Part shown: positions 54,001 through 56,481 of the stretch, piece after piece
Position numbering within the stretch: position 1 is the first letter of the stretch
Layout: each line of letters begins with the position of its first letter
Position numbers: made by a program
DNA from: an uncultured Acidobacteriota bacterium
Lineage (GTDB): Bacteria; Acidobacteriota; Polarisedimenticolia; J045
Length of the DNA stretch: 64,000 nt
NCBI GenBank assembly: GCA_963702425.1
Contig: CAVPCQ010000038.1
Location: 4,992 to 68,991, forward strand
Direction of reading: 5' to 3'

Positions 54001-56481
54001 AGGCCGGATCGTTCATGCCCGGGCCGCGCAGCGGACACACGGCGACCTGGACCGGGGGCGAGCTGCTCATTTGGGGCGGCGAGTACAAGGACGCGTCCGG
54101 CGGCCGTCGCGCCCTGGGAGACGGCGCACGCTGGTCAGCGCTCGCGGACGCCTGGACTCCCGTCACGGCGGCCGGCGCGCCGAGTCCCAGGCGCGGACAC
54201 ACCGCGATCTGGACCGGAAGCGAGTTGATCGTCTGGGGCGGCCTCGATGATTCTGGAAACCCACCGACCGACGCGGGTGCGCGCTACGACCCGGCCACCG
54301 ACGGCTGGCGCGCCGTCAGCGCCGTCGACGCGCCATCCACCCGGGAGCTCCACAGCGCCGTGTGGACGGACCAGGAGATGGTCGTCTGGGGTGGCCTCGA
54401 TACGACCGGAGCGCCGCCGCTCGACGGCGGGGGCCGTTACGACCCGAAGAACGACCGCTGGGGCGCAACCACGGCGGATCGTGCGCCGGGCGGCCGGGCG
54501 CATCACACGGTCGTGTGGAACATCGGGGAGATGATCGTCTGGGGCGGGAGCGGGGGCGTCGCAGGCAGTCTGCTGGGCGATGGCGGCCGATACTGCGCGC
54601 AATGCCCGTACTGGTTCCCGGATGCCGACGGCGACGGGTTCGGTCTCTACGGAACCGGCGTGATCGCGTGCGAGCAGCCGGCTGCATATGTGGACAACTT
54701 CGACGACTGTGACGATACCGACGCGAGCATTCACCCGGGTGCAGAAGAGACCTGCAACCTGAAGGACGACAACTGCAGGGAGGGCGCGGACGAGGGCGTC
54801 ATGACACGGTTCTACCGGGACCGGGACGGCGACGGGTTCGGGCGAGCGGATGACGGCTGGTCCGCCTGCACCGCTCCCGAAGGCTACGTCGCGGACGCGA
54901 CCGACTGCGACGACTCGCGCGCGGCCGTCCATCCCGGAGCCGAGGAGCGGTTCCTGCTGGACAACTGCGATGACGGTCTCGACAACGACTGCGACGGCCT
55001 GTCCGACGACAGGGAGCCGGACTGCGCCAGCAGCATCACCAAGCCGGACTTCCCGTGGGCGCCGCCGCTGATCTACGCCGGACGTCCCGCCGAGCTGCGC
55101 ACCGGCGGTGCGCGATGCGATCTTGGCGATCCGGTCGAGTACCAGTTCCGATGGGGAGACGGCGCACTCTCCGAGTGGACCACCACCGGCCGAGCGAGCC
55201 ACACCTGGGTGGAGCCAGGCGAGTACGCCGTGCCGGCCCGGGCACGCTGCGGCGGTCACCCGGAGATCCTGTCGCCTTGGTCGACACCCGTCAGGATCCG
55301 CGTCAGCGCGCAACCCACGAGCGGGCCCGATCTCGTCGCCAGCCCGCGTTCCGTTCGGCAGGACTGCAAGCGGCGGAGCGGGGTCGAGGTCTGTACGCTC
55401 AAGGCCCGGATCGCGGTGCGCAACACCGGCGATGATCCCACTTGGTCGAGCCGGCTCGATTGGCTCGTCTCAGATGCGTTGGTCTGGGAGGAAGGCGACA
55501 AGCCCCTCTCCTCGGTCTTCGTGCCGGAGCTGAGGCCAGGCCGGACAAAGACCGTCAAGATCCTGTACACAATCCCCGGCGGGACGAGCGGGCGCGGAAA
55601 GTACCTCCTGGGACGATTGGACCCGGCCAACCGCATCCGGGAGCGGGACGAGCTGAACAACGACTTCGCGGTCGCGATTGGGCCCTAGTGTCACGTAACC
55701 GAAGTCATGTTAACGCCGGGGCGGTCTGGCAAGCCGATGGCTGCGTTGCTCCTCCTTGCTGTACGGTTCAGTACAGCGTCGTCGTCGCGCCTTGCCCTCG
55801 GCTCACCATCCTCGCCCTGGCATTAACCTGACTTCGGTTACGTGACACTAGCAAGTCGAGGCGAGCCGCCCCCGCGCGACTGCGATCCCCGCCGCCGCCA
55901 CCGCCAGCCCGGCGGCCAGCAGCCCGACGCCCCACGCCGCCTGCCCGCCGCGGGCCGCGCGCGTGAAGACGCCCAGGAACCCCGCGTCGTGCGGCATCAG
56001 GAACATCCCGATCGCCGCGGCCAGGAACCCCAGCGCGGCGACGTCGAGTGGCGCGGCCGCGCTCTGCGGCGCGTCGCGCAGCTTGCTGTGCAGCCAGCCC
56101 CACGCGCAGTAGACGCCGAGCCCCAGCGTCAGCCAGCCGACGAAGCGCCACCACGAGAGCGGCGGCAGGTAGGCCATCAGCATCACGCAGGCCGCGGCAC
56201 CGAGCAGCGGGACCAGGTACGGCCCCCCCGGCACCCGGAACGGCCGCTCGCGCCCCGGATCGCGCCGCCGCAGCACGGGGATCGCGATGCAGACCAGCAC
56301 GAACGCGAAGAGCGTCCCGATGTTGGTCAGGTCGACCATCTCCTCGATGTTCGCGATCCCGGCGACGCCGCCGACCAGCAGCCCGGTGACGATCGTGGTG
56401 ACATGCGGGGTCCGGAAGCGCGGGTGGACGCGCGCGAAGACGGGGGGGAGCAGCCCGTCGCGCGCCATCGAGAAGAAGATC

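Follow-up and report, generated by a model that had tools for sequence, protein, structure and literature searches.

IS630 inserts at the target motif CTAG with a 2-bp duplication (PMC2577343, Table 1, citing Tenzen and Ohtsubo 1991), and for ISY100, a member of the IS630 family, TA duplication and cut-and-paste transposition have been shown in vitro (PMC2170065). Short non-coding elements related to this family are represented by RUP of Streptococcus pneumoniae, which carries ends matching an insertion sequence of the IS630 family, occupies TA-containing targets and is presumed to be mobilised in trans (PMC2229807). CTAG targets have also been linked to stop codons in other transposon families: in Rhodococcus equi, TnRErm46/ISRe46 (IS481 family) duplicates a CTAG that preserves the stop codon in some of the genes hit, whose function is thereby left uninterrupted (PMC6794481), and both IS870 and ISMt1 obtain a stop codon for themselves from the CTAG target (PMC13630536). 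Preservation of a stop codon by a CTAG target is, accordingly, already published for other elements; what is unusual at the locus described here is that one palindromic CTAG served two host genes at once.

The locus lies in the window, by which we mean the whole 64-kb stretch of Acidobacteriota DNA that was analysed, with a GC content of 72%. Two convergent genes are separated there by a 159-bp non-coding MITE at 55689..55847 (copy 2; no strand assigned to it or to its flanking motifs), bounded by a left CTAG at 55685..55688 and a right CTAG at 55848..55851 that represent the two copies of the duplicated target. The termini of copy 2 are perfect 19-bp terminal inverted repeats (TIRs) at 55689-55707 and 55829-55847; the element opens with TGTCACGTAACCGAAGTCA and closes with TGACTTCGGTTACGTGACA, its end being the exact reverse complement of its start, and as a whole it is a near-palindrome. 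Folding predicted a single long hairpin on either strand, with energies of −106 and −113 kcal/mol and z values of about −14 and −15, and an Rfam scan of the entire window matched no known RNA family. The 19-mer was counted four times in the window, as contributed by two elements, versus 0.01 occurrences expected by chance. The other element, copy 1 (33534..33692, also 159 bp and without assigned strand), is located inside a gene and bounded by CTAG at 33530-33533 and 33693-33696; the two copies differ at 2 positions, and the sequence outside their CTAGs is unrelated. Direct reading of the sequence thus confirmed the observation from which the analysis started, a 159-bp TIR element placed between two CTAGs.

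Since 72% GC yields many spurious ORFs, a GC3 frame plot was used to pick the real frames. On the plus strand, the ORF at 53013..55688 showed the coding signature in this plot and, from Pfam matches and the ORF list, encodes an 891-aa protein with Kelch repeats, a MopE motif and PKD and CARDB domains; its stop is the TAG of the left CTAG, and the CARDB domain ends 5 residues upstream of that stop. On the minus strand, the ORF at 55848..57572, likewise carrying the coding signature, encodes a 574-aa APC-family amino-acid permease (Pfam AA_permease) and stops at a TAG that appears on the forward strand as the CTA in the right CTAG. The Kelch protein of the window found an exact match in the protein collection, and its sole cluster partner was MCU0253703.1, an 890-aa protein from the Acidobacteria genome GCA_025456285.1, the contig of which is locus L039 in our numbering. 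The permease of the window was identical to cluster member P0252, despite which the contig look-up for this exact permease returned no record.

On the L039 contig the Kelch gene (464..3136, plus strand) and the permease gene (3133..4734, minus strand) overlap by exactly CTAG, the four-base overlap reading gatcgggccCTAGcgatgcgagg, and the element is absent. Comparison by blastn aligned L039 positions 1-3136 to window positions 52541-55688 at 90.2% identity and L039 positions 3133-4734 to window positions 55848-57449 at 90.5% identity, so that the lone CTAG of L039 (3133-3136) aligned to each of the two CTAGs in the window. Relative to L039 there are accordingly 163 additional nucleotides in the window, corresponding to the 159 bp of the element plus one CTAG, which is the classical signature of target duplication. 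The proposal of the sequence-only reading that the two genes shared their stops on one CTAG before the insertion was thus demonstrated by a true empty site. Its further claim that the insertion is neutral for both genes was borne out at the protein level: the C-terminus of the Kelch protein is ...AVAIGP in the window against ...AVTIGP in L039, that of the permease is ...GRLASTC against ...GRIASHR (window first, then the relative), and the equal lengths within each pair indicated that the insertion altered neither product.

Sharing of a CTAG stop was also seen in related DNA. In MAG MFD02979.bin.1.81 (locus L035), which is syntenic with the window across 20 kb at 92-93% identity, the permease gene and a convergent S8 peptidase gene overlap by exactly CTAG and the Kelch gene is absent; a third unoccupied CTAG serving as a shared stop was located at 3350-3353 of L002. 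Because it is devoid of the Kelch gene, L035 was rejected as an empty site for copy 2 and is informative solely as a parallel instance of stops that coincide on one CTAG. L006 and L007, the contigs that carry the nearest homologs of the permease, were likewise rejected as empty sites, since no Kelch gene lies beside the permease in them.

Two side observations concern the neighbouring DNA. A segment of ~2.9 kb made up of the Kelch/MopE gene and a spacer (window 52806-55682) was shared by the window and GCA_025456285.1 and absent from the MAG (L035 11728-11740) and from contig L007; as the S8 peptidase gene of the MAG ends on the same ...CCCTAG, with its CTAG stop common with the permease, the Kelch/MopE gene was gained or lost precisely beside the shared stop. 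The S8 peptidase gene of the window itself (50042..) carries a 2-nt gap at ~52740-52750 compared with both L035 and L039, by which its last ~25 codons are frame-shifted and its ORF reaches 52966 instead of the TGA at 52812-52814. This gap is either a genuine frameshift or an assembly error.

Insertions of the element were not all harmless, since copy 1 disrupts a TonB-like gene (32759..33896, plus strand), splitting it within the TonB_C domain. Removal of 163 nt at copy 1 restored a single ORF in which the TonB_C match (51 bits) crosses the junction, whereas removal of 159 or 167 nt restored none. Uninterrupted orthologs of the gene, 98% identical, are found in L036 and L037. At the insertion site the uninterrupted orthologs read ggcgcGCAGgcaagg, whereas the window reads ggcgcCTAG[element]CTAGgcaggg: the uninterrupted relatives (including L036 at 805-825, L037 and L038) have GCAG at the position of the CTAG duplicated around copy 1, and the next codon is AAG against AGG in the window. 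Thus, the length at copy 1 agrees with a 163-nt insertion and the target sequence disagrees, as this model needs three substitutions within 8 nt despite a background of 98% identity. None of the 17 uninterrupted sequences readable at this site was an allele bearing CTAG there, all of them encoding Ala or Thr rather than Leu. The mismatch may have arisen from an earlier double mutation that made the CTAG target, or from a non-canonical insertion followed by a 4-nt slippage deletion; it may also reflect a consensus error beside the repeat, an option favoured by the 2-nt gap noted above for the S8 peptidase gene.

The same gene supplied a second empty site. The stop of the TonB-like frame lies in a single, unoccupied CTAG of the window (33893..33896, no strand assigned), and in L036, a contig with 98% identity to the window around copy 1, a MITE copy (1013-1179) occupies the CTAG stop of the TonB-like gene. 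In L037 a different low-GC sequence begins directly after the same stop CTAG (990-1018), at the end of the contig, and is probably another element at the same site. Empty sites were therefore available in all at L039, at L036/L037 and at window positions 33893-96.

To survey the element beyond the window, the 19-mer was scanned for in one genome per species and, in addition, in metagenomes. At the species level the element was present only in MAG MFD02979.bin.1.81, the one related MAG scanned for copy number, with 3 loci: two full copies (L002 and L004) and one remnant (L005), all with CTAG on both sides. The remnant (L005 2774-2804) is an internally deleted derivative of 31 bp in which TGTCACGTAACC is joined to TGACTTCGGTTACGTGACA, apparently as a result of deletion between two AACC repeats. 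The five full copies known are all 159 bp long and 96-99% identical, with nothing in common outside CTAG; identity between the host genomes is only 90-93%, and even relatives that are 98% identical have different sites occupied, which together argues for recent mobility. With several unrelated loci, an apparent target duplication and presence or absence among relatives, the element has, as judged from these comparisons, the properties of a MITE. Exact 19-mer matches in the low-GC contigs L001, L003 and L009-L012 (Microgenomates, Bdellovibrionaceae and unassigned) were rejected, as they showed no second repeat and no CTAG junction and their number was about that expected by chance.

Tabulation of the flanks, which the sequence-only reading had proposed as a check, was carried out over these related genomes and metagenomes and found the MITE copies flanked by CTAG. 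The suspected preference for this target was upheld, as CTAG stood at every junction read for five full copies and one remnant, and at upwards of 20 junctions that belong to related insertion sequences (ISs) of full length; the sole exception was the junction of the IS in L008, which reads CTGG. Short-read contigs L018-L021 and L023, as well as the right flank of L036, agreed on one flank of the IS or MITE and diverged on the other; the divergent flanks are probably assembly joins across the repeat, making paired flanks there unreliable.

The window contains no transposase gene, and the scan of the related MAG for exact ends returned MITE copies only. The metagenome scan yielded an IS630-type parent in L008, where a complete ORF for a 351-aa transposase ends 2 nt ahead of a sequence agreeing at 27/27 bases with the MITE end, the similarity between the right end of this IS and the MITE end extending over ~33 nt. 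This ORF (4..1059) matched the NCBIfam model NF033545 for IS630 transposases with 227.1 bits at a cutoff of 100, and its Pfam matches were DDE_3 plus HTH_23/28/29/32. Full-length ISs of 1,132 bp each, with CTAG on both sides, were found at 599-1730 of L013 and 317-1448 of L014; their transposases are homologs of the L008 transposase at 94% and 82% identity, and their ends are imperfect, the left and right repeats agreeing at ~20 of the first 26 positions. In both of these contigs the gene upstream of the IS again stops at the left CTAG. Twenty further contigs carried two related transposases (~70% identity) with CTAG at every junction. The search for an intact IS with the same TIRs, suggested along with the flank tabulation, was thus successful to the extent of the 27/27 end in L008 and the complete 1,132-bp relatives in L013 and L014, and the designation of the element as a MITE is confirmed by its being short and non-coding with TIRs that match an autonomous IS. 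At the right junctions of L025, L027 and L029, two different IS630-type ISs abut on one CTAG, an arrangement that points to insertion of one in the CTAG flanking the other.

Taken together, these results make it highly likely that the element is a non-autonomous MITE of a 1,132-bp IS630-family (Tc1/mariner-type) IS from soil Acidobacteriota, targeted to CTAG. As a deletion derivative of such an IS, the MITE would depend on a transposase acting in trans, which would recognise the 19-27-bp ends and excise the element. Cut-and-paste insertion would then occur at the TA within the CTAG palindrome; by family precedent, gap repair would duplicate the inner TA, and the terminal G and C of the element would rebuild the outer bases, leaving CTAG on each side. 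At CTAG sites a 2-bp duplication of TA and a true 4-bp duplication of CTAG give identical sequence, and as all sites seen are CTAG, the sequences are equally compatible with both lengths. The argument for stop preservation holds under either of them, since the empty site has one CTAG and the occupied site has two. At the Kelch/permease junction the target was the lone CTAG in which the opposite-strand TAG stops of two convergent genes overlapped, with the outcome that each gene retains an intact stop and an unchanged protein, the genes now being 159 bp apart with a spacer between them that forms a strong hairpin.

The sequence-only reading had instead placed the element in the IS5 group, with duplication of a 4-bp YTAR target that is CTAG at this site. 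This assignment accommodates a duplication that looks 4 bp long and a CTAG that fits YTAR, and IS5-type MITEs that duplicate CTAG or YTAA are known, such as MITEPsy1 (PMC3189936). It did not survive the identification of a relative with the same ends that encodes an IS630-family transposase (NF033545, DDE_3): in every autonomous element with such ends or related ones the transposase is of the IS630 type, with DDE_3 and not DDE_Tnp_1, and among more than 25 junctions none was of the CTAA, TTAG or TTAA variants, only CTAG being seen apart from the one CTGG. We consequently regard an IS5-group origin as very improbable. The IS481 family was rejected as well, as the transposase scored 55.5 bits versus a cutoff of 224 and the bases outside CTAG are not repeated, giving no 6-bp NCTAGN. 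A further alternative would make CTAG part of the element itself, with 23-bp inverted repeats and no target duplication. The motif being a palindrome, extension of the repeat and duplication of the target look the same at an occupied site, every copy is flanked by CTAG, and the GCAG at copy 1 would be explained free of substitutions by a 167-nt insert followed by a 4-nt slippage deletion. The two clean empty sites, each with exactly one CTAG (L039 and window 33893-96), and the stop codons that appear on removal of 167 nt at copy 1 render this alternative extremely improbable. That the two copies in the window, which are 22 kb apart and nearly identical, derive from segmental duplication or recombination rather than transposition has a negligible probability, given that their flanks outside CTAG are unrelated, that both sites are empty in relatives and that related strains have copies elsewhere.

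The location of insertions was compared with the supply of targets. CTAG occurs at 12 sites in the 64-kb window, against 162 expected from base composition or 70 from a Markov model, which corresponds to a 6- to 13-fold depletion. When each occupied site is counted once, 10 CTAG sites existed before insertion, half of them (5/10) being TAG stops. About 5 of the 8 characterised insertions are located at stops (copy 2, L004, L036, L013 and L014), the others being intergenic (L002 and L005) or intragenic (copy 1). The match between these two shares implies that target availability alone accounts for the pattern, to which purifying selection may add. As CTAG is rare and about every second site left is a TAG stop, the element can be expected to land at the ends of genes, and landing on a stop codon requires no special mechanism.

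These shares also bear on whether the element owes its retention to a use, as an RNA hairpin that acts in both directions to end or stabilise the facing transcripts and to prevent their collision. The hairpins are very stable on both strands and the element sits exactly between convergent genes that formerly overlapped; against this, the stem is followed by no U-tract and by no terminator-like sites, other copies are located in a gene or between divergent genes, and with ~5/8 of insertions at stops matching 5/10 of targets, selection is unnecessary. We find retention for such a use improbable. A scan for promoters and terminators around the element found neither, and a terminator or insulator role is possible but was not supported. 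Also unlikely is a scenario for very GC-rich Acidobacteriota in which strict CTAG targeting provides a built-in safe harbour and the hairpin left between formerly overlapping genes might be kept as a two-way transcript insulator; as a separate part of it, the GCAG mismatch at copy 1 could point to a non-canonical insertion that rewrote its target. The premise of the safe harbour is that CTAG is depleted and that TAG stops, of which several are common to convergent genes, account for about half of the sites left; if the scenario were true, IS630-type elements would be guided towards the ends of genes, and duplication of the target would restore one stop or both.

With its occupied state, its empty counterpart and the parent element each documented, the Kelch/permease junction is a clean example of target choice rendering a transposon harmless. 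The locus also adds a MITE/IS630 lineage for the Acidobacteriota, a phylum with little-described mobile elements, and illustrates gene ends as default landing sites in very GC-rich genomes. Its value is illustrative rather than conceptual, because the principle that a CTAG target preserves a stop through its TAG is already in print.

Among known systems, the parent IS most resembles IS630 of Shigella sonnei and the IS630/Tc1/mariner elements including ISY100: it likewise encodes a single transposase with an N-terminal HTH and DDE_3, is ~1.1 kb long, has imperfect terminal inverted repeats and presumably inserts at TA, and it shares with IS630 itself the specific target 5'-CTAG-3'. It differs from IS630 in representing a new lineage from Acidobacteriota-type metagenomes, in which the use of CTAG looks strict, one CTGG junction apart, and the ends of the present element would rebuild CTAG on both sides, so that the duplication appears to be 4 bp long. 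Duplicated CTAG flanks are found with MITEPsy1 of the IS5 group too, but this element also uses YTAA and originates from an IS5-type transposon (PMC3189936). The element itself is an IS630-derived MITE in Acidobacteriota comparable to RUP of pneumococcus: like RUP and other IS630-related MITEs, it is short and non-coding, has ends that agree with those of an IS630-family IS, occupies targets containing TA, has a hairpin-forming body and is presumed to be mobilised in trans, whereas it differs from RUP in its host phylum, in the 72% GC of its surroundings, in its low copy number and in the use of CTAG rather than any TA. With TnRErm46/ISRe46, IS870 and ISMt1 it has in common a CTAG target whose TAG is a stop codon, although these elements have transposases of other families and another duplication (NCTAGN for ISRe46). 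There, one gene or the transposase itself benefits, whereas here two convergent host genes do so at once.
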